Below, in pieces: positions 5,043 to 44,173 of a stretch of DNA of 60,357 nucleotides. Location of the stretch: contig MESS01000079.1 of assembly GCA_001771055.1 (NCBI GenBank), positions 1 to 60,357 of the forward strand, given 5' to 3'. The notes below the pieces were generated by a model. That model did no database searches. It was not told the DNA's origin and saw nothing but the letters and a program-made list of their open reading frames with translations. Position 1 is the stretch's first letter, and each line of letters begins with the position of its first letter. The position numbers and the translations under genes were made by a program. The DNA comes from Caldithrix sp. RBG_13_44_9 (GTDB taxonomy: Bacteria > Calditrichota > Calditrichia > RBG-13-44-9).

Positions 5043-5696
5043 ATGAAAACTAAATTGTGGTGGATGGTATTACTATCATTTTACAGCCTGCTGTATAGCC
5101 AGCAGGAAATCACGGTGGCCCGTATCAAATACAAAGGTGGTGGTGACTGGTACGGTAATCGCACGACTTTTGTTAACCTGTTTCACTATATGCGGCAGAA
5201 TACCAATATTCAAACCAGTGAGCGGGAGGCAACCGTAGAGATAATGGATCGGGATTTCTTCCGCTATCCTGTTGCCTATATCGCCGGGCACGGTAATATC
5301 AAATTCAACGAAGAAGAGGTAACTCGTCTGCGGAAATATCTGATCTGCGGCGGTTTTCTCTGGGCCGATGATGATTATGGAATGGATTTTTCTCTGCGGC
5401 GGGAAATGAAACGGGTATTTCCGGAATTGGAATGGATGGAATTACCATTTTCCCATTCCATCTACCACATCCTTTATCAGTTTCCCAATGGATTACCCAA
5501 AGTCCATAAACACGATGGCGGTCCTCCTGGTGGATTTGCTCTGTTCTATGAGGGCCGGATGATTGCCTTCTATTCCTGGAATACTGATATCAGTGATGGG
5601 TGTGAGGATCCTGATGTCCATGGCGATCCTCCGGAGATCCGGCAAAGCGCACTGCAAATGGGAACAAACATTTTACTGTGGATTTTAACTAACTGA
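5043..5696 (+). CDS. DUF4159-like secreted/periplasmic protein
   Basis: The ATG at 5043 gives the signal-peptide-like N-terminus 'MKTKLWWMVLLSFYSLLYSQQ'; the track start at 4932 is a TTG with a non-signal-like extension. Motifs 'ARIKYKGGGDWY', 'FFRYPVAYIAGHGNIKF', 'GGFLWADDDYG' match my memory of DUF4159. Confidence 0.55.
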   Translation: MKTKLWWMVLLSFYSLLYSQQEITVARIKYKGGGDWYGNRTTFVNLFHYMRQNTNIQTSEREATVEIMDRDFFRYPVAYIAGHGNIKFNEEEVTRLRKYLICGGFLWADDDYGMDFSLRREMKRVFPELEWMELPFSHSIYHILYQFPNGLPKVHKHDGGPPGGFALFYEGRMIAFYSWNTDISDGCEDPDVHGDPPEIRQSALQMGTNILLWILTN

Positions 5697-5782
5697 CTTT
5701 TTTTGCAGAAATACTGAAAGATCTTATAGAAACTTTTTTCCTTGAGCTTTAAAATTGGAATAAAACTGTTGTTAAAATATTT

Positions 5783-9294: not shown

Positions 9295-11964
9295 ATGATT
9301 CATTATCTCTATCGGCTGGCGTTCTGTAGTCTGTTTATTATTTGTCATCCTCTGCAGAGCCAGGAGACCTATTTCGAAGAGAATATTTTTTTGCCTACCG
9401 ACACTTCCAGTGCTTACCGCCTGAATAATCTGACTTATCATTCGCCCAGGTCATTGAAAATAGCGCTGGTACTGAGCGGTGGTGGAGCCCGGGGATTGGT
9501 CCACCTGGGAGTACTTCAGGCTTTGGAAGAACATCAAATTCCGCTTAATCTGATCGTTGGCAGCAGCATTGGCAGTGTTATCGGTGGATTTTATGCCGCA
9601 GGTTATCGGGCCGAAGATCTGATTCAAATATTCCGGGAGATTGACTGGCAAAATTTATTCAGTGACCAGACCCAGCGTACTCATCTGTTCTGGTCCCAGA
9701 AGACCTCTCCCCGCAAACATTTGCTGGAGCTGCGATTCGACAAAGGTTTCCCTTATATCCCGCCTGCCCTCTCTCCCGGTCAAAAAATATTTGATATTAT
9801 TTATGCCCGTCTGCTGAATGCGAATTTTCAATCGGCCAACGATTTTGATAATCTCCGCATCCCTTTCCGGGCGGTGGCCACTGATCTGCTCAGCGGCAAA
9901 AGAGTTGTACTGGATCACGGAGACCTGGCCGAGGCGATCAGTGGAAGTATGGCTGTACCCCTGTTATTTGCACCGGTGGAATGGGATGGCATGTGGTTAG
10001 CCGATGGGGGGATCCGCGATAACCTTCCGGTGGACGTCGCTATCGAAAATGGTGCCAATTTGACTATTGCGGTGGATGCAACAGCTCCGCTGCGGACCGG
10101 AGAGCAAATGAAATCTCCCTGGCAAATTGCCGATCAGGTAACCACCATCATGATTCAAGAACCAACCCAGCAAAGCCGTTCCCTGGCCGATATCTTAATT
10201 TCACCTGCCGTGGACAACTATGGATCGAATGATTTTGCCGAGATCGATTCACTGATTCTGCTGGGATATCATTCTACTATTCAGATGATTGATTCCATTC
10301 AGCAGGCCATTAAGATGATTCAGGAAAATTTCTGGGGGGAAAACTATCGCTTTGGAAAAATCAGCAGTATTGCTATTTCTGGTATGGATTCGGTCTTGGC
10401 AGACAGTTTGAAAAAGTCCCTGGTGGTTAAAGAAGGGCAGGACCTGCGGCTCTATGATATATATGAGGATCTGACTTACCTGTATCGGGCCGGGTTTCTT
10501 GAAAATACTTATGCTTTTTTAAAGGGAACAGCATCATCACTTTCCTTGCAGTATGTTGTCAGGGAAAATCCATTGATACATCGGCTCATCATAAAGACCA
10601 ATCATATCAATCCGGATTCCCTCTTTTATGAAGGATATCTGAGCAATCTGAACCGGCCATTGAATTACAACCAATTGTTCATGCAGGTTGATGCTCTGTT
10701 GAATACTTTATTTGCCTCCGGTTATTCGCTGGCCCGGGTGGTCGATATTTCCTATCAACCTGGCTTGAGAACTTTACAGGTTAGAATTGATGAAGGTTAT
10801 ATTGAAAAAATTGAAATCACCGGCAACCTCATCACCAAAGACGGAATTATTCTTCGAGAACTTTTACTGAAAGAGGGTAGACCTTTCCGTTCCTGGGAAG
10901 CGATTGAAAGCCTGCAAAACATCTATAGCACCGGTTTATTCGACCGGGTAACTCTTAATGTTGTTCGAAATGATTCGGCCAATTCTATCATCTTTAGAGT
11001 TAAAGAAAAAAAATATCTGCTGCTGCGGGTGGGGCTCAATGCCTCACTTGAAAGAAAGGCCAAGGCCTTTATGGAGTTGGCGGAGGATAATCTTTTCGGC
11101 CGGGAAATAAAAGCCTCTTTATTTGGATTGATTGGTGATCTGGAGAAAGCAGCGGAATTTAAACTGTACAGCGTCCGCTTATTAAAAACCTATCTTACTT
11201 ATCGGTTTTCTCTTTATTATCAGGAAAGGTGGGATCGCTATTACCAGCAATATTCCAAAACTGATGATTATTTGACCATCCGGCGTGGTCTGAATTTCGT
11301 ATTGGGACAGCAAATTGCCCGCCTGGGATCAATCAGTGCAGAATTTCGCTGGGACAATATCAGTATTTTTTCTGAAAATTTTATTTTTCCTTATGATGAT
11401 AATTATAAAATTCGTTCTTTTACCATTCGCTCGGTAGTGGATAAAAGGGATAAACTGCCTTTCCCGAATAAAGGAATTTATAACCGCTGGTTCTGGGAAA
11501 CGGGAAATAAAAAAATACTTGGTGGATCCAGCTCTTTCACCCGTTTTTATATCGGCCTGGAAAGTTTTTATCCACTACATAATTCGTTGAATTACCGGAC
11601 TAGGGCTACGGCTGGCAGCGGTGACCTTACCGTACCTTTTTCGGAATTTTTTACCCTCGGCGGGATAGCTGATTTTCCGGGTTTGTATGAAAGAGAAAAA
11701 TTCGGCCGGCAAATTGCCTCCTGGCAGAATGAACTGCGTTACGCATTTTCCTGGGACCTGCCCGTTGACATGTATCTGGGAGCAAATTTCAATCTGGGAG
11801 CAACCTGGGAATCATCAGAAGATCTTATTAAAAAATCAGATTTTCTCACTAGCTGGAGTGTCTATCTGGCGATCAATTCCCTCATTGGTCCCATACAAAT
11901 CATGTACGGCAAACTGACCAATATCCGCGATATCATCTATTTTTCGATTGGTTATGAATTTTAG
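9295..11964 (+). CDS. Patatin-like phospholipase fused to POTRA + Omp85/BamA-type beta-barrel (PlpD-like, type Vd secretion architecture)
   Basis: Signal-like N-terminus. Patatin motifs 'LSGGGARGLVHLG' (oxyanion), 'GSSIGS' (GxSxG) and 'ADGGIRDNLP' (catalytic Asp). C-terminal half is rich in alternating beta-strands and ends in 'FSIGYEF', an aromatic terminal residue typical of outer-membrane barrels. Confidence 0.8.
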   Translation: MIHYLYRLAFCSLFIICHPLQSQETYFEENIFLPTDTSSAYRLNNLTYHSPRSLKIALVLSGGGARGLVHLGVLQALEEHQIPLNLIVGSSIGSVIGGFYAAGYRAEDLIQIFREIDWQNLFSDQTQRTHLFWSQKTSPRKHLLELRFDKGFPYIPPALSPGQKIFDIIYARLLNANFQSANDFDNLRIPFRAVATDLLSGKRVVLDHGDLAEAISGSMAVPLLFAPVEWDGMWLADGGIRDNLPVDVAIENGANLTIAVDATAPLRTGEQMKSPWQIADQVTTIMIQEPTQQSRSLADILISPAVDNYGSNDFAEIDSLILLGYHSTIQMIDSIQQAIKMIQENFWGENYRFGKISSIAISGMDSVLADSLKKSLVVKEGQDLRLYDIYEDLTYLYRAGFLENTYAFLKGTASSLSLQYVVRENPLIHRLIIKTNHINPDSLFYEGYLSNLNRPLNYNQLFMQVDALLNTLFASGYSLARVVDISYQPGLRTLQVRIDEGYIEKIEITGNLITKDGIILRELLLKEGRPFRSWEAIESLQNIYSTGLFDRVTLNVVRNDSANSIIFRVKEKKYLLLRVGLNASLERKAKAFMELAEDNLFGREIKASLFGLIGDLEKAAEFKLYSVRLLKTYLTYRFSLYYQERWDRYYQQYSKTDDYLTIRRGLNFVLGQQIARLGSISAEFRWDNISIFSENFIFPYDDNYKIRSFTIRSVVDKRDKLPFPNKGIYNRWFWETGNKKILGGSSSFTRFYIGLESFYPLHNSLNYRTRATAGSGDLTVPFSEFFTLGGIADFPGLYEREKFGRQIASWQNELRYAFSWDLPVDMYLGANFNLGATWESSEDLIKKSDFLTSWSVYLAINSLIGPIQIMYGKLTNIRDIIYFSIGYEF

Positions 11965-24437: not shown

Positions 24438-26510
24438 TTACTGCTTTAAATTTTTAACGGCCTTCTCTGCTGCTTCAATCAACGGTCGGGTTGATATTTT
24501 CTGTCCCACGGCCTGCTGCATCCATATCTGGGGAGACAGTCTTCCCAATTTGCACATTCGCTCCATTTCCGGCGCCAGGGTATGGCTCTTTAAAAATTCT
24601 TCAATCTGAAAGGAAATAATGTGACCCAATGGATAATCGGGAGTATACATTGCCCCATCTACAATATGGGAATAGATGGCCGGAAGAATCTGGTCTTTCA
24701 TCCCTAAAATGGGAGCATAATAGTCATTCCATACTTTTTTAGTAATTTCTATCATTGCGTTACGTAACTCAGCTGCATTGGCATTGGGATGCTGGTACAT
24801 CCAGCGCCAGATATACATATCGGTGAGGGCTACCCCGGAAATTTCGAAGGTCATCCAAAAAGTATTAAGCGCTTCTAAATCCTCGGCTTCCTGATTTTTA
24901 CTTTCCAATCCCAGAACCTGTAAATCCCGTGATTGAAATACAAAGGCAAAAGCTTCGGTAAAAGCAGTATTGGGAACTCCGTTGAGGGTGTAGTGATCAA
25001 TACCGTTCAGTGAAAATACCTGTTCCACATTGTGACCCAGTTCGTGAATGGCAATATTAAATCCCTTATACCGCATTCCATCTTCCGGAATTCTGGTGCG
25101 CAGGTGAGCTTTATCTTCCCTCATGGCAGCTCCCATGGCATGTCCGGCACCGCGGGAAGGATCGACCGCGATATAGGAGGCTAAAAATTCCGATTTATCC
25201 GGACTGAAACCAATTTTTCTCAGGATATATTGTAAATCTCGCTGGAAATCATCAACCGTAGGATACATTTTTCCTACTTTCACATCGAGATCCTCTTCAG
25301 TGTAGCTGGATCGGGGTTTAAATCCATTATACCAGATATCAAAAGGCTCTAATGGACGCCCGAGCCGTTGCTCAATTATCCGGGCGATATCTTTTAATGC
25401 CGGCGCAGAGGCTACTGATTTTAGCAGATCTTCCACTTCGGATTCAGACATTTCCCGGTTAATTTGAAATTTCCGGTCGATAAGGGTCGGGGCATGGGGA
25501 TGAAAGGGATCCACTAATCGTTCAACCTGGTAAATATTCCAGATATGCTGGTAGCGCTGGTTGGCTTCATTTTGGACATTGACTTCATTCTGGGTGTTGG
25601 ATTCAAAAACTTTATTGGTATAAGGATTCCAGTCATATTTATCACTATTGATTACTGCCGCCGGGATTTCCTGCAAAATAATCCGTTCCATCACTTTTTG
25701 AATAATTCGTTGTCTGTCCAGACCTTCGGTGCTGGCATAGTGAGCTTTGAGCTCGTCGCGCAGACCCCAGTGACTGATCAGTTTTAATCCTGGCGGGAAT
25801 AAGCGATTTCCCTTCTCATCAAGCAGCTTGTTCATTAAAATGTTATAATTGTTAATATAGTCATCGGCCATGGTATAAGTTTCGGAGCGTTTTTGGGACA
25901 CTTCTGCCGGTACCCGGGTCATGAACTCTTCCACCAGACGGACTTCAGCCCACTTCCTTCTTGACCATTCTTCCCCTAAGGTATTTTTCTGCTCTAAATT
26001 TTCAATTGGAAAATTCAGGAGCGCCGCAAAGGCCAATTTGGTATTAAAGAGATCATCACTGGTATGGGCAGAAGGTGAGTAATTCGCCCAGAGATAGTCT
26101 ATGGGAAATACTTTTCCGCGGTCAACATCCAACACCCATTTAAAGTCACGGGAAACCCGGTTTAAATTTCCATACAGACTTTCCAGATTTTTTTGGAAAC
26201 GGTCGAATATAGCATCCAATTCGCTCTGATCGGAAGAAAAATATTCGGTGCAAAAGACCTGGAAATCCTGATCGGTACCATCAGCCGCTTTCCAGCGGTC
26301 GCCAACCTGCTGGACGCCAATTTCAATGCGATTATTCGCACTGGCTCCAAATTTTTCTACCATGGCTTTAATGGTCTCTTGTCTGGTCATTTCACTTAAG
26401 CCCATTTGAATTTTTCCCTTCGAGTCAGGTGACTTGCAGCTGTTGATGATTATGGTAATACTCATTAGTAAAATAAAAATGGTCAGGTGACCGGCTCTGA
26501 TACCTATCAT
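24438..26510 (-). CDS. Lipoprotein zinc metallopeptidase (HExxH), family not resolved
   Basis: Lipobox-like 'IIINSC' after a hydrophobic signal. 'FNIAIHELGHNVEQ' zinc motif. No further family assignment is possible by eye. Confidence 0.5.
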   Translation of the reverse strand: MIGIRAGHLTIFILLMSITIIINSCKSPDSKGKIQMGLSEMTRQETIKAMVEKFGASANNRIEIGVQQVGDRWKAADGTDQDFQVFCTEYFSSDQSELDAIFDRFQKNLESLYGNLNRVSRDFKWVLDVDRGKVFPIDYLWANYSPSAHTSDDLFNTKLAFAALLNFPIENLEQKNTLGEEWSRRKWAEVRLVEEFMTRVPAEVSQKRSETYTMADDYINNYNILMNKLLDEKGNRLFPPGLKLISHWGLRDELKAHYASTEGLDRQRIIQKVMERIILQEIPAAVINSDKYDWNPYTNKVFESNTQNEVNVQNEANQRYQHIWNIYQVERLVDPFHPHAPTLIDRKFQINREMSESEVEDLLKSVASAPALKDIARIIEQRLGRPLEPFDIWYNGFKPRSSYTEEDLDVKVGKMYPTVDDFQRDLQYILRKIGFSPDKSEFLASYIAVDPSRGAGHAMGAAMREDKAHLRTRIPEDGMRYKGFNIAIHELGHNVEQVFSLNGIDHYTLNGVPNTAFTEAFAFVFQSRDLQVLGLESKNQEAEDLEALNTFWMTFEISGVALTDMYIWRWMYQHPNANAAELRNAMIEITKKVWNDYYAPILGMKDQILPAIYSHIVDGAMYTPDYPLGHIISFQIEEFLKSHTLAPEMERMCKLGRLSPQIWMQQAVGQKISTRPLIEAAEKAVKNLKQ

Positions 26511-27533: not shown

Positions 27534-29189
27534 ATGTTCCAAAAAAGACTAAAAGAGATCAGGGTTATTCTTCATTCTATCGGTTTTAAATTGTTTTTAC
27601 TTTTATTTTTATTGCTGATCCTGCTCTTTGGGCTTTATGGCGTACTGTATTCTGTGAAACTCACTCAAATTTATGAGATCACTATTGGTCAAAGCGCCTA
27701 CCGCAATAGTGATTTAATCAAAAAATCACTTTATCGTCTGATGCTGAATAATCAGCGAGATGAATTATATAAAACTATTCTGATGTTCCAGGACGAACCC
27801 GGGGTAGAAGGGATCCGCATTTATAACAAAAAGGGAGAGATCAAGTTTTCCACCAAAACCTCTGAAACTGGACATATCGTCGATATGAAAGCTGAGGCCT
27901 GCTATGCCTGCCATGCCGCCGATAAACCCATAGAATCTTTGCCGACTAAAAAGAAAATTCGGATTTACCGGGCGGTGGAAGGAAAACGAATAATGGGATT
28001 GATAAATCCCATCCGTAACGCCCCGGAATGCTCCAACAATCCCTGTCACGCCCATCAACCTGATTTAACGATTTTAGGAGTGCTGGATGTTCGGATGTCT
28101 TTAGATGAATTGGATATGGTACTTTCTGAAACCCGCCTCACGGTCTATGTTATCACCATCGGAATCGTTATCTTGGCGATGATTTTATTTGCGGTGGTGG
28201 TTTATCTGTTTATTTATCGGCCTATCAGTACCCTCAAAACGGGTACGGTCCGGCTGGCTATCGGGGATTTAGATTACCGGATTAACATGCACCGGCGAGA
28301 TGAGTTTGGTATGTTAGCGCGTTCCTTTAATAATATGGGTGAGAATTTAAAAAGAGCCTATAATGAATTAAAGGAGTGGTCTTATCGATTAGCTGAGAGA
28401 GTGAATGAAAAGACCATTGAGCTGGAAGAGATCCACAAAAGTATGCTGCAAGTGGAAAAAATAACCTCTTTGGGAAAGATGGCGGCCTCAGTGGCTCATG
28501 AATTGAATAATCCGCTGGCTGGAATTGTTACCTATGCCAAGATTCTGGAAAAAAAGGTAAAGAACAATGTTCCTGCTGGCGAGCAGCAAGAAAAGATGAT
28601 AAAGGAACTCGAACTGATCCGTTCTGAATCCATGCGCTGCGGTAATATTGTCAGGAATTTATTGGCCTTTGCCCGTGGAAAGTCAGTCAATTTTCAGGAA
28701 GCACAACTGGAGGATATCATCAACCGGAGTGTGGACATCATGCGCCATCATATCCAGTTGGCAAAGGTTGAACTGGAAAAAAAGATATCGTTGCAGAATA
28801 AAAAAATATTTTGTGATCCGGATCAGTTGCTCCAGGCCTTTATTGCTCTCCAGGTGAATGCAGTCGAGGCTATGCCGCAAGGAGGTCAGTTAACAATCTC
28901 GGCTGAGGATATGGAACATCCTTCCGATCAAATCATTATCAGAATCCAGGATACCGGAGCAGGTATACCGGAGGAGTTGTTGGATAAGATTTTTGAACCA
29001 TTCTTTACTACTAAAAAGGACCAGAAAGGTGTCGGACTGGGTTTACCGGTGGTTTATGGAATCATTCAACGACATCATGGTAAAATCTGGGTGAAATCCA
29101 AGGCTGGGGTGGGAACAACTTTTTTCATTCAGATTCCGGTAAGGCTGGATAAAATAGAAAATCAAGATATAAAAGGTATTGAATTATGA
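27534..29189 (+). CDS. Sensor histidine kinase (2 TM, periplasmic domain with CxxCH and CxxxxCH motifs, HAMP, HisKA, HATPase_c)
   Basis: TM helices at about aa 18-40 and 195-220. 'CYACH' (aa 123-127) and 'CSNNPCH' (aa 166-172) lie between them. H-box 'SVAHELNNPL'. G-boxes 'DTGAGIP' and 'GVGLGL'. Confidence 0.85.
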   Translation: MFQKRLKEIRVILHSIGFKLFLLLFLLLILLFGLYGVLYSVKLTQIYEITIGQSAYRNSDLIKKSLYRLMLNNQRDELYKTILMFQDEPGVEGIRIYNKKGEIKFSTKTSETGHIVDMKAEACYACHAADKPIESLPTKKKIRIYRAVEGKRIMGLINPIRNAPECSNNPCHAHQPDLTILGVLDVRMSLDELDMVLSETRLTVYVITIGIVILAMILFAVVVYLFIYRPISTLKTGTVRLAIGDLDYRINMHRRDEFGMLARSFNNMGENLKRAYNELKEWSYRLAERVNEKTIELEEIHKSMLQVEKITSLGKMAASVAHELNNPLAGIVTYAKILEKKVKNNVPAGEQQEKMIKELELIRSESMRCGNIVRNLLAFARGKSVNFQEAQLEDIINRSVDIMRHHIQLAKVELEKKISLQNKKIFCDPDQLLQAFIALQVNAVEAMPQGGQLTISAEDMEHPSDQIIIRIQDTGAGIPEELLDKIFEPFFTTKKDQKGVGLGLPVVYGIIQRHHGKIWVKSKAGVGTTFFIQIPVRLDKIENQDIKGIEL

Positions 29190-30526
29190 AACCTTACAAG
29201 ATATTAATAGTCGATGATGAGCTCTCGGTCAGGACTTCTTTGAATGAATGGTTTCTGGAGGATGGTTTCAAGGTGGAAACGGCTGAAAGCGCTGAAGATG
29301 CTCTTTATAAAATGCACCGGGGGCCATTCGATCTGATCCTTCTGGATATTAAGATGCCCGGGATGGATGGTATTACCCTGCAAAAGAAAATTAAAGAGAT
29401 CGATGCCGATGTTGTCATCATCATCATGACCGCCTATGCCTCGGTAGAAACAGCCGTAGAAGCTCTTAAGCTTGGCGCATTTGATTACGTCACCAAACCC
29501 TTCGATCCCGACGATCTTTCCCGCCTGGTTAGGAATGCTCTAAAACAGAAGGAACTTGCGGATGAGAATATTCAGTTGAAGGAAAAAATTACCGAGCTTG
29601 CCGGGGTCTCGAATATGGTTGGTGAGAGCGAAGGGATGAAAAGAGTATTAGAAATGGTGGATACGGTGGCAGAGACTGATTCGACGGTATTGATCCGCGG
29701 TGAAAGCGGTACGGGCAAGGAATTAATCGCCCGGGCTATTCACACCCGCAGTAAAAGAAGATATTTTCCAATCGTGGCGGTGAATTGCGGTGCCATCCCG
29801 GAAACCTTACTGGAAAGTGAATTGTTCGGCCATGAAAAGGGGGCCTTCACTGGAGCCCAGTACCGCCGGAAAGGTAAAATTGAACTGGCGAATGGCGGTA
29901 CTCTGTTTCTGGATGAAATTGGGGATATCAGTTCTCAGATGCAGGTTGATCTGCTGCGAGTGATTGAAAGTAAACGGTTTACCCGGGTTGGTGGGGGAGA
30001 TGAAATCCAGGTCGATTTCCGTTTGATTTGTGCTACCAATAAAAATCTGGAAAAATTGGTCGAGGAAGAAATTTTTCGGGAAGATTTATATTATCGGATA
30101 AACGTGTTTACCATCTTTATCCCTCCTCTGCGGGAACGCCGTTCGGATATACTCCTGCTGACGGAATTCTTCATTCAGAAATACTCCCGGACCATGGGCA
30201 AACCTGTGAAAAAAATATCTGCAGCTGCTCAGGAAATACTGCTGTCCCATCCCTGGCCGGGAAATGTACGGGAATTGGAAAATGCCATCGAACGGGCAAT
30301 GGTGGTGGGGAAGCATTCAGAAATTATGAGCGAAGATCTGCCGTTACATATCAATGAGCAGGAGAAGAAAAAGGATAATTTTATTAAACTGGACGACCTG
30401 GAAAAGCAGCATATTGAAAAGATCATTGCTGAAGCCAACGGAAATATTACCCGGGCTGCCAGTCTTCTGGGGATCGATCGGGTAACACTCTATAATAAAA
30501 TTAAAAAATACGGAATTAAAAGGTAA
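29186..30526 (+). CDS. Sigma-54-dependent response regulator (REC + AAA+ + Fis-type HTH; NtrC/AtoC family)
   Basis: REC 'ILIVDDE...[13 protein letters not shown]'. Walker A 'GESGTGKE'. Sigma-54 contact loop 'GAFTGA'. C-terminal '[26 protein letters not shown]'. ATGA overlap with the kinase stop. Confidence 0.9.
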
Positions 30527-31075
30527 TTGAATAAACAGATATATCTGGCTTTTATTAATGGACATTTTCCGCCAGATTGGAAAAATCTGGCAACTGATCT
30601 GCGTCACTGTCTGCCTTTTACCTTCGAGATCCTGTCGCTGAAAGTGAACCTACGGCTATTTCACTCTGCCGACCGGCATCAATATCACTCCACTTTACTT
30701 TTAGGACATCTCTTGAAAAATTTGCCCGAGCAGGGTGAGAAGATAATTGGAATTACCGATGTGGATATCTATATTCCAATTTTGACTTTTTTATTTGGGG
30801 AGGCTCAATTGAATGGAAGAGGAGCAGTGGTATCTACTTATCGGCTGAATACTGTATTCTATGGCCTACCCAGAAATGATAAATTACTGTATGACCGAAC
30901 TCTGAAAGAGATCATGCATGAATTAGGACATACTTTTGGTCTGGTCCATTGTGCAGACTTTGAATGTGTGATGAATTCATCTACCTATGTTGAAAACATT
31001 GATCTTAAGCAGGCATTTTTCTGTCAATCCTGCCAGGATAAAATGGGGATCACCTGTGATAAACGAACAACCTGA
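30527..31075 (+). CDS. amzA: Archaemetzincin-like zinc peptidase (M54 family)
   Basis: 'HELGHTFGLVHCADFECVMNSS...CQSCQDK' is the HExxHxxGxxH plus Cys4 arrangement. The TTG start directly abuts the regulator's TAA stop. Confidence 0.75.
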   Translation: MNKQIYLAFINGHFPPDWKNLATDLRHCLPFTFEILSLKVNLRLFHSADRHQYHSTLLLGHLLKNLPEQGEKIIGITDVDIYIPILTFLFGEAQLNGRGAVVSTYRLNTVFYGLPRNDKLLYDRTLKEIMHELGHTFGLVHCADFECVMNSSTYVENIDLKQAFFCQSCQDKMGITCDKRTT

Positions 31076-31219: not shown

Positions 31220-32029
31220 TTACTTCCGGATAAATAAATCATGAATAAATTCCCGGAAGAGTTTGCTTCCCATAATTTTTTCCAGATTCTGCTCCATCGC
31301 CCCGCCATCGCCTAATGTTAATCCGATATTCTCAGGTTGATGATCTCCCACGCTGCGCTGGAGATAGGTTTTAATACCGGATATCTTCTTCTGATAATTT
31401 TCTATTCCCCCGGTTGAATAACTTTTCCGTTTAAGATCCACTGCCAGATCTTTTGATTTTATCTTCAGGATAAAGGTGTCATCCGATAACGGATCAGCTG
31501 AGACATTCACATTCAAGGGATAGGACGGATTTACAGCGGCAATTTCACCTTTTACCGGGGCATATAAGGGAATCATTATTTCTCCACGAACCAGCCAAGC
31601 CATGAGTTGTCCATACTGAATATGTTCTCCCAGTTGAGGAAGAATGCACCGGTCTAATGGATATAATATTTTTAAACTCAGATTGTCAATTCCGATTTGT
31701 ACCTGATCGGATTCTTCAGGCTTAAACCAGAAATGAGAGGAATGATAAAAGCGATCTAAATGTATTTTGCATCCCTCCAGCAATTTATTCAGGCAGGCGT
31801 TCACCATCTGATTGGTATTTTCGGTAAAATTGGAGGCAACTATTTCAGAATGCTCGTTGTGTTGAGTCGTGCTGGAATGTTCGGTTCCCTGCATCGCATG
31901 GTGAAATTCACAGTGTTCACAGTTGAAATCCAGATCGCAGAGTTTGTAATTGACCAGGCCAGCGGACATCCAAACACATTTAAGATCATTGCTGTTTTTA
32001 TCTGAGTAAACTGGCATTATTGAACCCAC
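31220..32029 (-). CDS. Cys/His-rich N-terminal domain + glycine-cleavage-H-like (GcvH-fold) domain protein, lipoyl-Lys not conserved
   Basis: 'CVWMSAGLVNYKLCDLDFNCEHCEFHH'. GcvH-like 'HFWFKPEESDQVQIGIDNLS...LPQLGEHIQYGQLMAWLVRGEIMIPLYAPVKGEIAAVN'. Start uncertain: either the GTG at 32029, which overlaps the nrfD-like stop, or the ATG at 32017. Confidence 0.6.
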   Translation of the reverse strand: MGSIMPVYSDKNSNDLKCVWMSAGLVNYKLCDLDFNCEHCEFHHAMQGTEHSSTTQHNEHSEIVASNFTENTNQMVNACLNKLLEGCKIHLDRFYHSSHFWFKPEESDQVQIGIDNLSLKILYPLDRCILPQLGEHIQYGQLMAWLVRGEIMIPLYAPVKGEIAAVNPSYPLNVNVSADPLSDDTFILKIKSKDLAVDLKRKSYSTGGIENYQKKISGIKTYLQRSVGDHQPENIGLTLGDGGAMEQNLEKIMGSKLFREFIHDLFIRK

Positions 32030-33243
32030 TAATTTGATATTTTCTCTTTTTGGAGTTGATGGTTCTCTACCTTCCGAATTTTTATTTGTTTGCGATAGGG
32101 TATTTCAATATGATCTTTTTTCTCAAAAATAGGCAGATATTTAACGGCCATTCGGAAAGCTGCAAAACCTAAAGCTACGATCATTAAAGTCACGCTGATT
32201 TCCATCCAGGATGGGAAATAATCAGCTTGGGCGTAGGATTCCATTCCGGTGATGGCGATGTTCAGGCGGTTCATGATGAAGCCAAGAATGACCATCAGAA
32301 CCCCGCCGAACAGCGTTTTTTCGCTTTGGCGAATTTTAGGGATGGCTAAGATGATCATCGGGAGAACCACCCCCAGCAAAATTTCAGCCCAGAAAAAATA
32401 GGTCTCAGTTCGGTTAATGAACATGAAAGACCATGCATCCCGGCGGGCAAAATCCTGCAGTTTTAGCAGGGCATAGAGCGACAGTACAAATACCATTACC
32501 CGCGCCAATTCAGAGACCAGGGATTTCTCGAGATGTTTATTGAAAGCTCTGGCACTCAGGAATGATTCGAAAATAACCATGGCAAAACCTACTGCAACCG
32601 CTGATATGAAAAAAAGAACCGGCAGCAGGGGAGAGTACCACAATGGATATAGTTTTTCCGGAACGATCAGATACAACGAGCCTAAAGAAGACTGGTGCAA
32701 AGTGGAAAATATTACACCCAGAATAACCAGCGGTATAAGGAAATTGCGGATGATTTTTAACAATTTATTCCAGCGTAATTTTTCTAAGACTACCGGACTG
32801 AATTCCAATGCCAGAACGGTGGTATAGAGCATAACGCACCATCCTACCTCGAACATCACTGAATGGGGATTCCACATGATAATCGGATGCCAGATCCGGT
32901 AAGGCCTACCCAGATCAAAAAGGATAGCAATGATAACTATCAGGTAGCCCAGAAATGCAGTCAGAATAGCGGGACGTACTATGGGTTTGAATTTTTTAAT
33001 ATTGAAGATGTATACAATAGCTGCCAAAGTAAAACCGCCGGCAGCCAGACCAACCCCACAAAGGACATCAAATCCAATCCATAATCCCCAGGGAAACTGA
33101 TCACTTAAGTTGGTGGCAGTTCCTAAACCATAGAAGAATCTAACAAAGGTGGAATACATTCCCAGAATAAGCAGAACGATAAATACTCCTTTCCAGAAGG
33201 TCAGTCGAAAATGAAACCGGGAAGCCAGAGTGTAAGCATTCAT
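32029..33243 (-). CDS. NrfD/PsrC-family polytopic quinone-interacting membrane subunit
   Basis: About 10 hydrophobic helices. N-terminal 'FWKGVFIVLLILGMYSTFVRFFYGLGTATNLSDQFPWGLWIGFDV' is typical of NrfD-like proteins. TAATG overlap with the upstream Fe-S gene. Confidence 0.8.
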   Translation of the reverse strand: MNAYTLASRFHFRLTFWKGVFIVLLILGMYSTFVRFFYGLGTATNLSDQFPWGLWIGFDVLCGVGLAAGGFTLAAIVYIFNIKKFKPIVRPAILTAFLGYLIVIIAILFDLGRPYRIWHPIIMWNPHSVMFEVGWCVMLYTTVLALEFSPVVLEKLRWNKLLKIIRNFLIPLVILGVIFSTLHQSSLGSLYLIVPEKLYPLWYSPLLPVLFFISAVAVGFAMVIFESFLSARAFNKHLEKSLVSELARVMVFVLSLYALLKLQDFARRDAWSFMFINRTETYFFWAEILLGVVLPMIILAIPKIRQSEKTLFGGVLMVILGFIMNRLNIAITGMESYAQADYFPSWMEISVTLMIVALGFAAFRMAVKYLPIFEKKDHIEIPYRKQIKIRKVENHQLQKEKISN

Positions 33244-34013
33244 TAATTTTCCTCCTCTATCTGTGCACCGTCCTGATCCACTGGAATTTCCTGCAGTTTG
33301 ATTCTGCGGTTAATAATCCAGGATAATCCGAACAAGAATACTCCGCTGAATGCGACTACATTAGGGATTTCTTTCATCACCTGCCAGGTGAGTTTGGAGA
33401 AAGCCTCCTGGAAGTTTTTGGTTTTGAAACCCAGATCAGCCAGTGAAACTGAAGAAATGATAAAGACCGAAGTTCCCCCGGCTTCATTTAATCCATAGAT
33501 ATATGGATGGTATTTGTCTTTTTCCTGTTTTATCCGCTCCTGGGCGATTTGTATCAATCCTTCCTTTTGACCGAATAAAGTGGCGCCAGTGGGACAGGCC
33601 TCGGCACAAGCCGGAATTTTTCCTTCTTTGATGCGCTGATAGCACATGGTACATTTTTTTACCAGGGGCAGCGATTTGTTCCATTCAAATTTGGGAACAT
33701 CAAATGGACAGGCGATAATACAATACCTGCACCCCATGCATTTGTTTTCGTGATAAATTACCGGTCCCTCCGCTGTCTTCTCGAATGCACCCACCGGACA
33801 TACAGATCTGCAGGTGGGATCTTCGCAATGCATGCACATCCTGCGGTAATAAATATCCTGATCTGCTATGGTTTTGTTATTAACAACAGTATATCTTTCG
33901 GCAGAGAGTTCATAACTGTCATTCCTGGGAAGTTGATTCGTTTCCTGACAGGCCTCCATACAGGCCTCGCAGCCTATGCAAAGAGTGGTGTCGATGAGAA
34001 AGCCGTAACTCAT
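33243..34013 (-). CDS. 4x[4Fe-4S] ferredoxin-type subunit (NrfC/HybA/DmsB-like) with C-terminal TM helix and no Tat signal
   Basis: Four cluster motifs: 'CIGCEACMEAC', 'CMHCEDPTCRSVCP', 'CMGCRYCIIACP', 'CTMCYQRIKEGKIPACAEACP'. TM helix 'VVAFSGVFLFGLSWII'. The ATG at 34013 is preceded by AGGAG. A stop codon upstream leaves no room for a twin-arginine leader. Confidence 0.85.
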   Translation of the reverse strand: MSYGFLIDTTLCIGCEACMEACQETNQLPRNDSYELSAERYTVVNNKTIADQDIYYRRMCMHCEDPTCRSVCPVGAFEKTAEGPVIYHENKCMGCRYCIIACPFDVPKFEWNKSLPLVKKCTMCYQRIKEGKIPACAEACPTGATLFGQKEGLIQIAQERIKQEKDKYHPYIYGLNEAGGTSVFIISSVSLADLGFKTKNFQEAFSKLTWQVMKEIPNVVAFSGVFLFGLSWIINRRIKLQEIPVDQDGAQIEEEN

Positions 34014-34081
34014 TATATCTCCTGTATTAAGCAACCTTTAGCTGTTTACCAGAGCAATAGAAGCGATTCTGGAAATTGTGC

Positions 34082-34744
34082 CTATTTCTGTTTGCAGAAG
34101 TCATTTTCGAATTTTTCCCAGGTTTTCTCATCAAACTGGGACAGGATTCCAAAGGGAAGATCACCGCCATCAGCCATGGTTATTCCCATGTCGGTTTGAG
34201 TGACGCTTTCCTGGAAAAACTTTTTCATCTGAGCATACTTTTCATTCATCCAATTTTTTGCTTTTTCAGCGAGCATCCAATTGGGCACTTCAGCCGCAAC
34301 ATTTTCCGGCTTCATACTATAGATCCAGTTCTGACTGACCATCTCGACGGTTGAGTCTTCCATCACCCGGTTATTCAAACCAGTTATAGTACCGCTGATA
34401 GGTGCTATAACATCTAGTATTTTTTCACCCTTATGGATCTTCAAAAGAGTATCGCCCTTCTTTACTCCCTGCCCATTTTTCAGCATTTCAATTTCATCCG
34501 GCTCACCGATGAGTCCTAAGATGACCGGATGAATTCCCATGAGCAGATTTCCGCTGTCCAATAATTTAGTCCAGGTGAAAGAGGGTTGCAGGAAGACCCC
34601 GTCTGGCAGATATGATAGTACCTGAGACAAAGCCACCTTTCCGGGAAAGGCCTGGGATAAAACGCCCACTTTTTTCCGTTTTTGGATTGAATAATCAATC
34701 GCAATGAAAAGCAAGATGGTTAAAATTACCATTAATACGACCAT
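34082..34744 (-). CDS. Membrane-anchored GcvH-like domain protein (N-terminal TM helix), lipoyl-Lys not conserved
   Basis: 'MVVLMVILTILLFIAIDYSIQKRKK' anchor. GcvH-like 'FTWTKLLDSGNLLMGIHPVILGLIG...GDTLLKIHKGEKILDVIAPISGTITGLN'. Confidence 0.6.
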   Translation of the reverse strand: MVVLMVILTILLFIAIDYSIQKRKKVGVLSQAFPGKVALSQVLSYLPDGVFLQPSFTWTKLLDSGNLLMGIHPVILGLIGEPDEIEMLKNGQGVKKGDTLLKIHKGEKILDVIAPISGTITGLNNRVMEDSTVEMVSQNWIYSMKPENVAAEVPNWMLAEKAKNWMNEKYAQMKKFFQESVTQTDMGITMADGGDLPFGILSQFDEKTWEKFENDFCKQK

Positions 34745-34794: not shown

Positions 34795-34810
34795 TTCAAT
34801 TTTGGTGCCA
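34795..34810 (-). promoter_or_regulatory. Candidate sigma-54 (-24/-12) promoter for the GcvH-like/NrfCD-like operon
   Basis: The minus strand reads TGGCAC-CAAAA-TTGAA, against the consensus TGGCAC-N5-TTGCW. The spacing is correct and the -12 GC is GA. It lies about 50 nt upstream of the ATG at 34744 and is the only TGGCAC-N5-TTG match I found in an intergenic region of this window. Confidence 0.45.
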
Positions 34811-35166
34811 CAATTTGGAGACTACCATCATAAGTAATTGTAATTATGGCAGATAAAAAAAATATTGATTTAATTTAAGGGGTTTAGAGCAGAGGAGAAA
34901 ATGCTGAATTAATATACAGAAATACAAAGATAAATTTAAAATAGTGTTTAAGTTAAGTAATTACATATGCCTAGAAAACGTTGAATTATTAAACATGAAC
35001 AGTAGAATATATTTACATACAGTTTAGAAAATGTATAAAGGAATTATACATTGTAAATTAAATGATTATCAAAGTATGGCTGACAATTGGGTCAGATTGT
35101 GAAAATTTGCCACAAATTAGAAGTAAAATATCCAAAAATGGGAAATATATATGGGCATTGCTACGG

Positions 35167-40751: not shown

Positions 40752-42938
40752 TCACCGGATTATTAATTCCTTGATAAAAGAATAGCTCAATGGACTTTTA
40801 ATACCGGAATAATTTCCTTTCACTACATTTTTCCCATCAGAAAAAACCAGATAGCTGTATTTCCCATAGTGAGAGAGCAGGCTGCCCACCCGACCAATTT
40901 TATTATTTTCTCCCAACATGATCATGCAGATATTATTCTCAGAATCAGGTCGGCGGGTAACCCAGACCACCACTTCCTCAATTCCCGGGGTAGGCTTTCC
41001 GTTGAGATAAGCCAGTTGATCCTGCAGTGAAAATTCTTTCTCACTTTCGAATGTGAGCTTTTTATATAAACTGTTTTCTTTCGGGTTTCCCAGGAGATAG
41101 AATGATCTGTTTTCCAGATCAGCTTCGGACACTTCCTTAACCTGGTGGATGGTCAGCTGTTCTTCACCTTCGGACATCATCCGGGCCAGTTGTTGATAAG
41201 TTTCCAATTTCCCGGTTTCACAATTATCGGGTAAAATGATCCAGGCCTCCGGTTGAGCAAAAATTTCAGCAAGTGAGGGTGGAATTTCTGCTCTGGTCAG
41301 TTTGCGGAAAAGATCAAAATTGGGATCGATGCTGAGTTGTTTAGGCTGGGAATCCATATCCAGGGAGAAATTTTGTTCCGATTTTTCCAACCAGAGATAA
41401 GTAGCATAAGAAGAATCGTCCTGCAATGTGACCTCGACGGGTACAAATAAACGGTATACCTCCGGCTGATTTTGTCTCAGGGTAAAGGAAAGTTTATTAT
41501 TTTGCAGTAATACTGAGTTCAATTCAATTTCCGGCGCACCTTTCCGCCCAATCCATTGTTCAAAAAACCAGCTCAGATCTTGCTGGCAGACCTGGGCGAC
41601 GGTATTTTTTATATCATCCCAGGAAGCCTCTTTGAACTTAAAGTCCTGATAAAATTTTTGAAAACTTTTAAAAAACAGCGAGTCTCCAATGACCTGTTTC
41701 AGCTGGTGGAAGACCATGGCGCTTTTTCCGTAACCAACTGCCCGGGAGGCGCTTTCGGTTCGCTCTTTAAATTTACTGAGTGGAAAATCTTTGTTTTCTT
41801 TTACATATACGGTAAAGTCACGGTTTAAATCACGGCGGTAATCCCGGGCTTCTTCCGGACTTTTATTTTGTTTGTAATAATGATCAGCATAATAGGTGGT
41901 GAGTCCTTCACACCAGTTGCCAGAGTCATAATCTATATAAACCGAATTTCCCCACCAGTTGTGCGCCACTTCATGGCCCAGGGAGGTGTGAATGATGAAA
42001 GGCAGGCGAATGACCTGGCTCCCCAACAGAGTGTAGGAAGGCATCCCATACCCGGTAGGAAAGAAGTTTTCCACTACCGCAAATTTGCTGAAGGGATAAC
42101 TGCCGATCAGACTTTCATACATCTCCAGATATCGTTGACAGGCAGTTAAATATGATTCTGCCAGCTCCTGCGACTCTGGAAAAAAATAAGTATAAACTGA
42201 CACCTCCCGATATTTTTTCTCACCAATGGTATAATGTGAACCGACTAAATTCAAACCACTGGCGGGGTAATTAATACTCCAACCGGTTTTGCGCTGGCCG
42301 TTTTCAATTTTGTTTTCCGTCAGATCGCCTTCCGTGAGCACCATCAGACTTTCCGGGGTAGTGACAGTGATATCGAAGTGTGAAAGTTCATCCGGAATGG
42401 TAGGATACCAAAAATAAGCCGGGCTGAGGAAGATTCCCTCTTTCCCGATAAAGCCGTTGACTTCATAAGCTTTATATTCCCGGGAGAAAGCAGCTTTATC
42501 AACCGAGTCAGACGCAGTTAAGGAATAGGTGATGGTAATCTGACCTTTTTGAAAGGGTTTGTCAAAAGAAAGCGAGAGTTCACCGGCCTGTTTATATTCT
42601 TGATATAAGGAAGAGTCAGAATCATTGAAATATTTTTTCAGATCAAAGTCCGGAAGCAATTGAAACTTTAGATTTTTATCCTTCCAGACAATTTTAGAAA
42701 TAGTAGCATTTTTATTAATAAGGAAGGAAAAAGCCCTGGTTTTTTCTGCTGAATTCAGGGAAAGTGTATTCTCAATTTTCATCAGATGTTTATCTGGTTG
42801 AATGATCATTTGCAGAGACTGTTTTTCAATGGAGGTTGTGGATTGCTGACAATGGCCCGCGTCGTGCAGGCAGATAAATAAACCGAAAAGCAGTGTAATT
42901 ATCATGGTCTTCATATATACCTCTGAATTTTTGTTCAC
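40752..42938 (-). CDS. M1-family (aminopeptidase N-like) zinc metallopeptidase, secreted
   Basis: 'GHEVAHNWWGN' followed by 'WCEGLTTY' (gluzincin third ligand). Signal-like N-terminus. ATGA overlap with the upstream gene. Confidence 0.8.
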   Translation of the reverse strand: MNKNSEVYMKTMIITLLFGLFICLHDAGHCQQSTTSIEKQSLQMIIQPDKHLMKIENTLSLNSAEKTRAFSFLINKNATISKIVWKDKNLKFQLLPDFDLKKYFNDSDSSLYQEYKQAGELSLSFDKPFQKGQITITYSLTASDSVDKAAFSREYKAYEVNGFIGKEGIFLSPAYFWYPTIPDELSHFDITVTTPESLMVLTEGDLTENKIENGQRKTGWSINYPASGLNLVGSHYTIGEKKYREVSVYTYFFPESQELAESYLTACQRYLEMYESLIGSYPFSKFAVVENFFPTGYGMPSYTLLGSQVIRLPFIIHTSLGHEVAHNWWGNSVYIDYDSGNWCEGLTTYYADHYYKQNKSPEEARDYRRDLNRDFTVYVKENKDFPLSKFKERTESASRAVGYGKSAMVFHQLKQVIGDSLFFKSFQKFYQDFKFKEASWDDIKNTVAQVCQQDLSWFFEQWIGRKGAPEIELNSVLLQNNKLSFTLRQNQPEVYRLFVPVEVTLQDDSSYATYLWLEKSEQNFSLDMDSQPKQLSIDPNFDLFRKLTRAEIPPSLAEIFAQPEAWIILPDNCETGKLETYQQLARMMSEGEEQLTIHQVKEVSEADLENRSFYLLGNPKENSLYKKLTFESEKEFSLQDQLAYLNGKPTPGIEEVVVWVTRRPDSENNICMIMLGENNKIGRVGSLLSHYGKYSYLVFSDGKNVVKGNYSGIKSPLSYSFIKELIIR

Positions 42939-44173
42939 TTATTTTTTTGAGAAAGATCTCCCACTTGCCGGATGAGCTTATGATCCTCTGGCAAATAACG
43001 TCTCATGTAGTTTCGACTGATTTCCCAGAAATTATTGGCATCCGCCAGTGATTTCCGGGAAAAAGCCAGGTTGCCTTTTGACCAGTAAATATTAGCCAGC
43101 ACTTCATCCCAATTTTCATACTGTACCAGCATTAACTCAAACAAAGAATCCGGCAGGGAGTAATTCCGGGTGTGGGCCATATAGTTTTCCAGTTTCCGGT
43201 ATCCTTTTAATTCATAGGGATTGTTCAACAGCATTTCATGGAACAGGATCTTCACTTTGCCTGAATCATTCCGGGCTTCATAAAAATCTATTAAATCCAG
43301 GTAGGCATCTTGCAGATCCGGCAAAAGATCGATGCATTCCTGCATGGTAACCAAAAATTTTTCGGATTCTCTCAGTTGCTGCAAAGCATTAGCGGACAAA
43401 CGAAGAGCATCATATTTCAGATAGAGGTCTTCAGTTGTTAGATATTTTAAAGCCTCACTGGCATAATTGTAAGCCTGGGTATATAATTTTTTCTGAAAAC
43501 TGATTTCGGCCAGACGATAGAGTGAAATGCCGTCTGCCGGTTCTTTACGGGTATTTTTCTGATAATAACTCCGGGCCCGGTCGAGCTGGTTTCGATTGAA
43601 ATAATAATCTCCCATCCAGCGGTTCATCTGGATATTTTTATAACCCAGCTTTTCCGCCTGTGAGTAATTATTAAAAGTTCTATCTTCCAGGGATTTGATA
43701 GTGGTTGGTTTGGCGAACTCAAAGTGACTCAGATCCCGCAATTGAAGATCATAATAATCACCCAAAAATTTATAAGCCAGGGCATACCTGGAATGATCCT
43801 TAATAGTCTTTTCCAGGATCCGCTGAGGATATCTGAGACGAATAATTCGGGGGTTCTCATCTTCTGCGGTTGAAGGGATTTTGTCAGAGTCCGGATCTTT
43901 TAAATAAAAGAAATCATAATTCTCATGCCGGTAGTAATTGGTAAGAGCATTACTTACCATCCAACAGGTGAAAAAGGGTTTCATCCCGTTCTGCTGAAGA
44001 AATTCTTCCAGCAGTAAATGGACCGTAGCATATTTCTCCTGTTCCAGAAAGGTATTAACCTGCTGAACAAAGATAGTACTGTCTGTTTGGATATCCTGAC
44101 TCCAGCTTGTTGGAATCAACCACAAGACTAAAAGCAGGGTGAACAATATTTTTGGATGGGAAAGAATAAACAT
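42935..44173 (-). CDS. Secreted helical-repeat (TPR-like) protein, translationally coupled to the M1 peptidase
   Basis: Signal peptide 'ILFTLLLVLWLIPTSWSQ'. Y/L/A-rich helical repeats ('ARSYYQKN', 'AYNYASEALKY'). 4-nt overlap with the downstream peptidase gene. Confidence 0.45.
   Translation of the reverse strand: MFILSHPKILFTLLLVLWLIPTSWSQDIQTDSTIFVQQVNTFLEQEKYATVHLLLEEFLQQNGMKPFFTCWMVSNALTNYYRHENYDFFYLKDPDSDKIPSTAEDENPRIIRLRYPQRILEKTIKDHSRYALAYKFLGDYYDLQLRDLSHFEFAKPTTIKSLEDRTFNNYSQAEKLGYKNIQMNRWMGDYYFNRNQLDRARSYYQKNTRKEPADGISLYRLAEISFQKKLYTQAYNYASEALKYLTTEDLYLKYDALRLSANALQQLRESEKFLVTMQECIDLLPDLQDAYLDLIDFYEARNDSGKVKILFHEMLLNNPYELKGYRKLENYMAHTRNYSLPDSLFELMLVQYENWDEVLANIYWSKGNLAFSRKSLADANNFWEISRNYMRRYLPEDHKLIRQVGDLSQKNK

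Follow-up and report, generated by a model that had tools for sequence, protein, structure and literature searches.

An Fe-S/NrfD membrane module without a catalytic subunit is encoded together with a two-component system and an archaemetzincin-like peptidase

Membrane modules of the NrfD type are usually seen as the quinone-coupling anchors of catalytic enzymes. In contig MESS01000079.1 of Caldithrix sp. RBG_13_44_9, of which positions 1 to 60,357 (in nucleotides, nt) are called the window below, four genes on the minus strand between 31220 and 34744 encode an iron-sulfur (Fe-S) subunit, an NrfD-type membrane subunit and two proteins of the GcvH fold. An earlier note on this DNA had described the four as a cassette, and all four open reading frames (ORFs) are indeed present. 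The comparison of about 85 loci shows, however, that the conserved core of the system is made of the Fe-S subunit, the NrfD subunit, a histidine kinase, a sigma-54 response regulator and an M54 peptidase, and that the GcvH-fold proteins are lineage-specific accessories. On this basis, it is quite possible, although we would not put it more firmly, that the cassette is the input or accessory part of a seven-gene redox-signalling system, in which a HybAB-like module co-senses for the two-component system.

The seven genes in the window are the following (TM, transmembrane; Tat, twin-arginine translocation; Cys4, four-cysteine domain).

27534..29189, plus strand: histidine kinase with TM1, a periplasmic domain of ~160 amino acids (aa), TM2, HAMP, HisKA and HATPase_c (Pfam)
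29186..30526, plus strand: NtrC-type response regulator with REC, sigma-54 AAA+ and HTH_8 domains (Pfam); 4-nt overlap with the kinase gene
30527..31075, plus strand: archaemetzincin-like M54 zinc peptidase (Pfam Peptidase_M54, 1.9e-25); last gene of the core
31220..32017, minus strand: gene 4, Cys4 plus non-lipoylatable GcvH-fold protein with a 'TLGDGG + helix' extension; predicted cytoplasmic; paralogue of gene 1
32029..33243, minus strand: gene 3, NrfD-family quinone-interacting subunit with 10 TM helices, HybB/HmcC-like, predicted N-in/C-in
33243..34013, minus strand: gene 2, HybA/HmcB-like 4x[4Fe-4S] protein; it has no Tat leader, and NRR comes directly after its C-terminal TM anchor
34082..34744, minus strand: gene 1, non-lipoylatable protein of the GcvH fold, anchored by a TM helix and extended at the C terminus by 'TMADGG + helix'; accessory subunit

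The conserved core comprises five genes

The loci of close relatives of gene 4 gave conserved synteny and nothing more, and the NrfD protein was therefore taken as the start of the search. A profile search of genome contigs, with the gene 4 alignment and narrow patterns, returned one locus, from an uncultured Caldithrix. The scan of metagenomes with an NrfD alignment returned at least 584 confirmed relatives, and 80 loci, with NrfD identities of 55-90%, were fetched and annotated with hidden Markov models (HMMs) built from the first loci. Together with six others, these are the approximately 85 loci compared here. For the NrfD relatives at 60-70% identity, the source names are Marinimicrobia, KSB1 and Calditrichota. 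At their loci, genes for GcvH-like proteins, the Fe-S subunit and NrfD precede, on the same strand, those for a HAMP histidine kinase, a sigma-54 regulator and an M54 peptidase. The grouping of the four genes in the window is not a matter of chance, given that these genes are found again at ~85 loci.

In the window, the kinase, regulator and M54 peptidase genes (27534-31075) converge on the cassette, and the Pfam domains of the first two assign them to the NtrC-type two-component systems. The kinase gene directly follows that of NrfD at 59 of the 63 loci with enough sequence downstream; among the four exceptions, the kinase gene is convergent as in the window at one locus and upstream at another, and the remaining two have too little flanking sequence. 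The sigma-54 regulator is present at 38 of the 39 loci with at least 4.5 kb downstream, and so is the M54 peptidase (38/39). An overlap of 14 nt joins the NrfD gene to that of the kinase at 21 loci, and one of 4 nt joins the kinase gene to that of the regulator at 17. The orders vary: the two parts are convergent in the window and in L001, L004 and L013, co-directional in L007 to L009, and the kinase lies upstream in L039 and L043. In L016 and L091, two full paralogous copies are found on one contig, divergent in the former and in tandem in the latter.

The GcvH-fold proteins follow another distribution. TM-anchored GcvH (TM-GcvH) is encoded upstream of the Fe-S gene at 31 of 54 loci; its slot is occupied at 18 of 54 by a periplasmic monohaem cytochrome c with a Sec-type leader, and both are found together at a single locus. 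Cys4-GcvH comes after NrfD at 16 of the 63 loci mentioned above. From these counts, the core consists of the five genes for the Fe-S subunit, NrfD, the kinase, the sigma-54 regulator and the M54 peptidase, whereas the GcvH-fold proteins are accessories of particular lineages. The view that the four-gene cassette is the unit, with the GcvH-fold proteins as its defining partners, thus has to be given up in favour of the kinase, the regulator and the peptidase.

Two loci have other contents. The KSB1-type locus L006 (9196-10109, 11733-12884) is devoid of the sigma-54 regulator and of M54, and it also codes for a 2x[4Fe-4S] ferredoxin and for a Cys-rich protein of 123 aa without Pfam match. In L010 (8801-11315), genes for MobA-like, FdhD and FdhE proteins follow the cassette in the place of the kinase, and the contig ends soon after.

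No catalytic or Tat-exported partner accompanies the module

The proposal that the window cassette has no catalytic subunit can be extended to the family, since no molybdo-, haem- or hydrogenase catalytic subunit was found in any of the ~85 loci. The search for catalytic and Tat-signal partners spanned -4/+8 kb around NrfD in the 80 fetched loci. Across these loci, which come from diverse environments, no Tat-signal protein recurs near NrfD, and neither HybO nor HybC is encoded in the window or in the 80 loci.

A module of this composition might be an orphan whose Tat-exported enzyme has its gene in another part of the genome, with the Fe-S subunit hitchhiking on that enzyme like FdnH, DmsB and PsrB. 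Signal-less tail-anchored Fe-S proteins are known to hitchhike in this way (PMC10924467), the topology signals described below favour a periplasmic Fe-S domain, and the MobA-like, FdhD and FdhE genes downstream in L010 would fit such an enzyme. However, hitchhiking partners are usually co-operonic, the 80 loci show no recurring Tat-signal protein near the module, and the FdhD/FdhE neighbourhood occurs in one locus only. We consider this explanation improbable.

The kinase carries conserved periplasmic haem-c motifs

The periplasmic domain of the kinase (27657-28154) contains two haem-c motifs, CYACH and CSNNPCH, the second of the Cx4CH type. Both a CxxCH and a Cx4CH motif occur in 53 of 58 kinase orthologues. 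This sensor domain has no match in Pfam or among PDB sequences, and its motifs suggest a di-haem domain that has not been described before. At three loci (L009, L064 and L077), NrfD itself is extended by fusion with one more TM helix and a trihaem cytochrome c7 domain. Considering the kinase motifs, the c7 fusions and the monohaem cytochrome c together, periplasmic haem appears to be a recurrent element of the system.

The Fe-S and NrfD subunits form a sister clade of Hyb and Hmc proteins

Gene 2 encodes exactly 16 cysteines arranged in four ordered [4Fe-4S] motifs (C12 to C140), a pattern also seen in 69 of 75 homologues, and combines these four clusters with a C-terminal TM anchor as proteins of the HybA type do. 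Its NCBIfam matches are HmcB (NF045715; 237 bits, 2.4e-70, below the cut-off of 420) and HybA (NF008134; 5.2e-58, also below cut-off), and it shares 32% identity with mature E. coli HybA (residues 37-316). The ATG at 34013 is preceded by GGAG. The longest ORF, from a TTG at 34034, adds only seven residues, and an in-frame stop lies nine codons upstream of the ATG; this short open stretch makes a Tat leader impossible. The four complete motifs, the TM anchor and the missing room for a Tat leader were therefore all read correctly in the earlier note. The same holds for the family: none of 65 Fe-S homologues has a Tat leader, the proteins start ~11 residues ahead of the first Cys, and for 78% of these homologues the reading frame is closed by a stop <45 codons upstream of that Cys. 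A hidden Tat leader and a nearby Tat partner were ruled out by these 65 starts and by the -4/+8 kb survey, and TM1 of the kinase was discarded as a Tat signal anchor, having no conserved RR.

The product of gene 3 belongs to the Pfam family NrfD (PF03916; 113.7 bits, E = 1.8e-32, cut-off 25.8). Its sequence agrees at 100% identity with an NCBI protein of the Caldithrix sp. RBG_13_44_9 genome. It has 10 hydrophobic segments, at the positions found in E. coli HybB, in agreement with the ~10 TM helices initially proposed, and one of its predicted cytoplasmic loops bears the family-specific sequence FESFLSxRAF. Its scores with the NCBIfam models HmcC (NF045714; 361.6 bits) and HybB (NF008133; 316.4 bits) do not reach the respective cut-offs of 550 and, for the HybB equivalog, 450, and a search of PDB sequences with NrfD gave no match. 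The profiles confirm that genes 2 and 3 encode an Fe-S/NrfD module, the pair resembling HybA-HybB and HmcB-HmcC. Because the HmcB, HybA, HmcC and HybB scores are all well below the equivalog cut-offs, by these profile scores the pair represents a sister clade that is neither the Hmc nor the Hyb family proper.

To evaluate the functional residues, the HybB residue list of PMC8076601 was mapped onto 122 NrfD family members. Five of the six positions of the HybB quinone site have invariant or nearly invariant equivalents (D58, D109, S129, E133 and S190). The equivalents of R89, Y99, E148 and H184, channel residues of HybB cited as mutagenesis-tested (Calisto and Pereira, PMC8076601), are invariant. 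The retention of both sets suggests that gene 3 looks like a working quinone-reactive and proton-conducting protein of the HybB type.

Genes 1 and 4 encode non-lipoylatable GcvH-fold proteins with a common extension

Both GcvH-like assignments are supported by profile and structure. Against Pfam GCV_H (PF01597, cut-off 22.2), the gene 1 protein scores 33.8 bits (E = 3.6e-8) and the gene 4 protein 40.2 bits (E = 3.6e-10). The AlphaFold2 model of the former (predicted local distance difference test, pLDDT, 83) shows a GcvH fold preceded by an N-terminal helix (residues 2-25) and a disordered linker, consistent with the single TM helix plus GcvH domain first proposed; in Foldseek, it matches the E. 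coli H-protein with a template modelling score (TM-score) of 0.84, a root-mean-square deviation of 2.1 A and E = 6e-9. The model of the gene 4 protein (pLDDT 82) gave H-protein matches with TM-scores of 0.71-0.78 (E = 3e-9). Pfam scores above the gathering threshold together with the H-protein fold place both proteins within the GCV_H fold. The N-terminal Cys cluster that had been noticed in gene 4 has the form C-x12-C-x5-C-x2-C, and all four residues (C18, C31, C37 and C40) are conserved among homologues.

Concerning the start of gene 4, the earlier note had one-nucleotide overlaps at both the 2/3 and the 3/4 junctions. The TAATG overlap of genes 2 and 3 is present. At the 3/4 junction, TAGTG exists as well and its GTG at 32029 is a possible start, but gene 4 probably begins at the ATG at 32017, since homologues begin with MPV.

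The two proteins are paralogous. An alignment of the gene 1 family with gene 4 by hhalign has a probability of 99.8 and E = 1.7e-27 over 179 columns. The shared part comprises the H-protein fold, a long helix, a near-invariant T-(L/M)-x-D-G-G motif and a last helix. Only the N-terminal parts set the two proteins apart: a TM helix for gene 1, the Cys4 domain for gene 4. The gene 4-type family is large, with >150 full-length clusters at 50% identity and 611 matches at E < 1e-10. It is tempting, but speculative, to regard the invariant DGG as the site at which the M54 peptidase would cleave the GcvH-fold proteins.

It could be supposed that these proteins act as lipoyl or sulfur-carrier arms, like LbpA of the sHdr system, and bring a covalently bound substrate to the Fe-S module. 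The genuine H-protein fold and the presence of a GcvH-like module with Hdr-like proteins in L093 (see below) would be compatible with such a role. However, an alignment of profiles with the GcvH proteins of E. coli and B. subtilis, gap-free across the hairpin bearing the lipoyl-lysine, places Glu in the lipoyl-lysine column (E. coli K64) in both proteins, as the earlier hand alignment had done, and Lys occupies this column in only 2 of 59 TM-GcvH and 8 of 191 Cys-GcvH relatives. The NCBIfam models for functional GcvH are far from being matched: with NF002270, which has a cut-off of 117 bits, the two proteins reach 35.6 and 36 bits at best, and the scores with TIGR00527 are lower, below its cut-off of 115.85. 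A carrier function, for lipoyl or sulfur, is thus very improbable and essentially excluded.

The TM helix of gene 1 is preceded by an uncharged stretch and followed by KRKK, and the TM-GcvH forms have the same pattern, with no charge ahead of the helix and an Arg/Lys run behind it. This predicts an N-out/C-in topology with the GcvH domain in the cytoplasm. Several fusions concern the same module. In the operon of L006, a TM-receiver-GcvH protein takes the place of the sigma-54 regulator, and L021 has a 397-aa ORF of the TM-GcvH family at the matching position. P0194 is one fused chain in which a Cys4-GcvH module precedes HisKA-HATPase_c, and two to four Cys4 repeats accompany the GcvH module in P0185, P0246, P0268 and P0225. 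Given the charge pattern around the TM helix and the receiver fusion, which is necessarily cytoplasmic, the predicted site of action of the GcvH module is the cytoplasmic side.

L093 (6907-10362) encodes an HdrA-like flavoprotein of 1151 aa whose C terminus is an extended module of GcvH, helix, GG and helix; it matches the TM-GcvH HMM with E = 2.7e-33. The fusion gene adjoins FlpD/MvhD and a gene for a 450-aa protein with multiple Cys4 repeats and GcvH (5304-6656), which makes L093 a second, purely cytoplasmic context of the extended GcvH module.

The membrane side of the Fe-S subunit

The earlier note called the orientation of the Fe-S subunit ambiguous. It is still so, and the conflict is sharper than stated there. 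On the one hand, the Fe-S proteins have neither a Tat leader nor a recurring Tat-signal partner nearby. On the other hand, several signals point to the layout of a canonical periplasmic complex. The bias of lysine plus arginine (K+R) is 19.3 versus 6.0 in the NrfD family and 15 versus 5, in the same direction, in HybB, and the c7 fusions imply that the NrfD C terminus is cytoplasmic; an inverted, SoeC-like NrfD was ruled out by these two observations. In the Fe-S subunit, an invariant RR follows the TM helix, with K+R of 3.8 after the helix versus 1.65 before it, as in HybA, and predicts that the tail is inside and the Fe-S domain outside. The quinone site of HybB, the residues of which are retained here, lies on the periplasmic side (PMC8076601). 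Two solutions are possible in view of these signals: either the four-cluster protein would be exported without a recognisable Tat route, or an NrfC-type subunit would sit on the cytoplasmic face of a canonical NrfD.

The second solution leads to a different interpretation of the whole system, close to that of the earlier note, namely a stand-alone energy-converting quinone oxidoreductase with a cytoplasmic Fe-S subunit, the expression of which is simply controlled by the kinase and regulator. Electrons would pass through Cys4-GcvH, ferredoxin or Hdr-like partners and protons through the NrfD channels, with quinone being reduced or oxidised in NrfD. Such an enzyme would account for the 65 Fe-S proteins without Tat leader, for the cytoplasmic character of the accessories (orientation of TM-GcvH, receiver fusion, Cys4, L006 ferredoxin), for the GcvH-HdrA-like fusion beside FlpD/MvhD in L093 and for the conserved proton-channel and quinone-site residues. 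An NrfD complex that faces the cytoplasm moreover has one precedent in the literature searched, SoeABC (PMC8076601). Nevertheless, NrfD is not inverted here as proposed for SoeC, according to both the K+R bias and the C terminus placed in the cytoplasm by the c7 fusions. In the canonical orientation, its quinone site faces the periplasm and is therefore too far from a cytoplasmic cluster, and the invariant RR tail predicts an outside Fe-S domain. In addition, no substrate-converting subunit is encoded, and the GcvH and Cys4 proteins are missing from many loci while the kinase is never absent. For these reasons, we regard a stand-alone oxidoreductase as rather unlikely.

A sigma-54-like element precedes the cassette in Calditrichota

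Two features were found upstream of gene 1.

34796..34810, minus strand: sigma-54-like -24/-12 element TGGCACcaaaaTTGA; the start codon of gene 1 lies 53 nt downstream
35030..35052, no strand assigned: perfect 9-nt palindrome AATGTATAA-N5-TTATACATT, found by inverted-repeat search ~230 nt upstream of the promoter-like element

Five Calditrichota loci share the AT-rich spacer of 420 bp ahead of gene 1 with a conservation of only 66%; within this spacer, TGGCAY-N5-TTGA (TGGCA..AAA.TTGA) is invariant in all five. This motif has its sole match in the 60-kb window, both strands considered, at the element listed above. At related loci the palindrome is preserved in part, with a TATAAT..TATA dyad, and it is a candidate activator-binding site. 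The element and the palindrome together would connect the cassette with the neighbouring sigma-54 regulator. Among the 80 loci, enrichment of sigma-54-like sites upstream is weak, which limits the promoter claim to the Calditrichota loci.

A possible redox-signalling system

What we infer about the path of the electrons, about sensing and about the adaptors is the following. Through the NrfD subunit, the quinone pool would exchange electrons with the Fe-S chain, which would equilibrate with the kinase haems and, in other lineages, also with the monohaem cytochrome c of the operon or the c7 domain fused to NrfD. The activity of the kinase would thereby report quinone-pool or periplasmic electron flux. 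The phosphorylated regulator would in turn activate sigma-54 promoters, including that of the cassette, and a further regulon. On the cytoplasmic face, the GcvH-fold proteins, one held by a TM helix and the other equipped with a Cys4 metal or Fe-S site, might act as adaptors that connect the membrane module with cytoplasmic signalling or redox proteins.

Several lines of evidence argue for this interpretation: the linkage to the kinase, the regulator and M54, with its gene overlaps and its persistence through rearrangement; the lack of a catalytic or Tat-signal partner in 80 loci; the haem motifs of the kinase and the additional periplasmic haems; a functional-looking NrfD; the occurrence of the GcvH module in signalling proteins; the sigma-54-like element; and the duplicated paralogous sets of L016 and L091.

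Other observations weigh against it. The path from the Fe-S clusters to the haems needs a periplasmic Fe-S domain, and the 65 Fe-S proteins have no Tat leader and no hitchhiking partner nearby. The Cys4-GcvH protein and the 2x[4Fe-4S] ferredoxin of L006 are partners of a cytoplasmic redox type, and the GcvH-HdrA-like fusion of L093 fits electron transfer at least equally well. The strongly conserved proton-channel residues are those expected of an energy-converting enzyme. As regards the promoter, the -12 position is GA where GC is canonical, and the sigma-54-like sites upstream in the 80 loci amount to 19 versus 7 matches, i.e. ~3-fold enrichment. Finally, the neighbouring kinase and regulator may have no other role than to control the operon.

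More tentatively still, the system could represent an undescribed and widespread class of respiratory-state sensor. In such a class, a complete HybAB-like module deprived of its former enzyme would be hard-wired to an archaemetzincin and to a two-component system made of a di-haem kinase and a sigma-54 activator, the non-lipoylated 'GcvH + TxxDGG' protein would serve as a portable cytoplasmic adaptor, and a rule of membrane-complex biogenesis would be broken. A whole clade of enzyme-less NrfD proteins joined to a two-component system would allow bacteria to read the quinone pool or the periplasmic electron flux directly, by means of cofactors. The H-protein fold would gain a new use, that of an adaptor which is not lipoylated and keeps a conserved TxxDGG tail, and the Fe-S proteins without Tat signal pose a sharp problem of biogenesis and topology. 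The bacterial archaemetzincins, for their part, receive a first genomic context.

Relation to known systems

One of the closest known systems is HybA-HybB, the pair that transfers electrons for hydrogenase-2 of E. coli. The module shares with HybA the four [4Fe-4S] motifs, the C-terminal TM helix followed by RR and 32% identity with the mature protein, and with HybB the layout of the 10 TM helices, 32% identity, the K+R bias and the quinone-site and channel residues. It differs from HybA-HybB by the lack of a Tat leader and of HybO/HybC nearby, by scores under the cut-offs, and by its coupling to a kinase, a regulator and a peptidase.

HmcB-HmcC of Desulfovibrio are the best NCBIfam matches, and the Nhc, Qrc and ACIII modules of cytochrome, Fe-S and NrfD subunits are of a related type. 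As in Hmc-type modules, a c-type periplasmic cytochrome is co-encoded or fused, here in some lineages only. Unlike in Hmc, the scores remain below the cut-offs, there is no signal peptide, and HmcA, HmcE and HmcF are missing, as the cassette encodes neither a multihaem HmcA nor a cytochrome b nor a CCG protein.

The sulfite:quinone oxidoreductase SoeABC has been proposed to be a cytoplasm-facing NrfD complex with an 8-TM SoeC that is thought to be inverted (PMC8076601). Both systems attach an Fe-S subunit without Tat signal to an NrfD-type subunit, but the NrfD described here is a canonical protein with 10 TM helices, and the molybdopterin subunit of Soe has no counterpart.

The GcvH-fold proteins have the barrel-sandwich hybrid fold of GcvH and LbpA (TM-score 0.71-0.84) and match Pfam GCV_H, but they are distinguished by the absence of the lipoyl-lysine, the helix-TxxDGG-helix extension, the TM or Cys4 N terminus and the gene context. 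They do not belong with the LbpA proteins of sHdr systems: there is no lipoyl-lysine, and Hdr genes are absent from the cassette and its neighbourhood in the window.

Membrane machines acting as co-sensors have functional analogues in the cbb3 oxidase with PrrBA/RegBA and in BceAB with BceS. In these systems as in the one proposed here, a membrane machine encoded with the kinase or acting on it supplies a signal that the kinase by itself would not sense. This is an analogy of function only, as no sequence relationship exists and the present system combines an NrfCD-type module with a kinase that has haem-c motifs of its own.

The earlier note knew of no described complex of this composition, and the literature searched gives none: the cluster is not described in the NrfD review (PMC8076601), in the Caldithrix abyssi genome paper or in the other literature searched. 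It is also missing from the survey of Tat tail anchors (PMC10924467), which was blind to the module because it admitted only proteins whose own chain has a Tat signal. The parts all come from known families and, to our knowledge, their assembly is new.

Other ORFs in the window

Three further ORFs, at 5783-9208 (plus strand), 24438-26510 (minus strand) and 42935-44173 (minus strand), encode proteins of 1141, 690 and 412 aa, respectively, with no Pfam match at E <= 1e-5. An 895-aa chain encoded at 789-3476 (plus strand) combines HATPase_c_2 (an anti-sigma-type kinase domain), HAMP and a SpoIIE phosphatase domain. At 9295-11964 (plus strand), a protein of 889 aa consists of a patatin-like phospholipase fused to POTRA and an Omp85 barrel.

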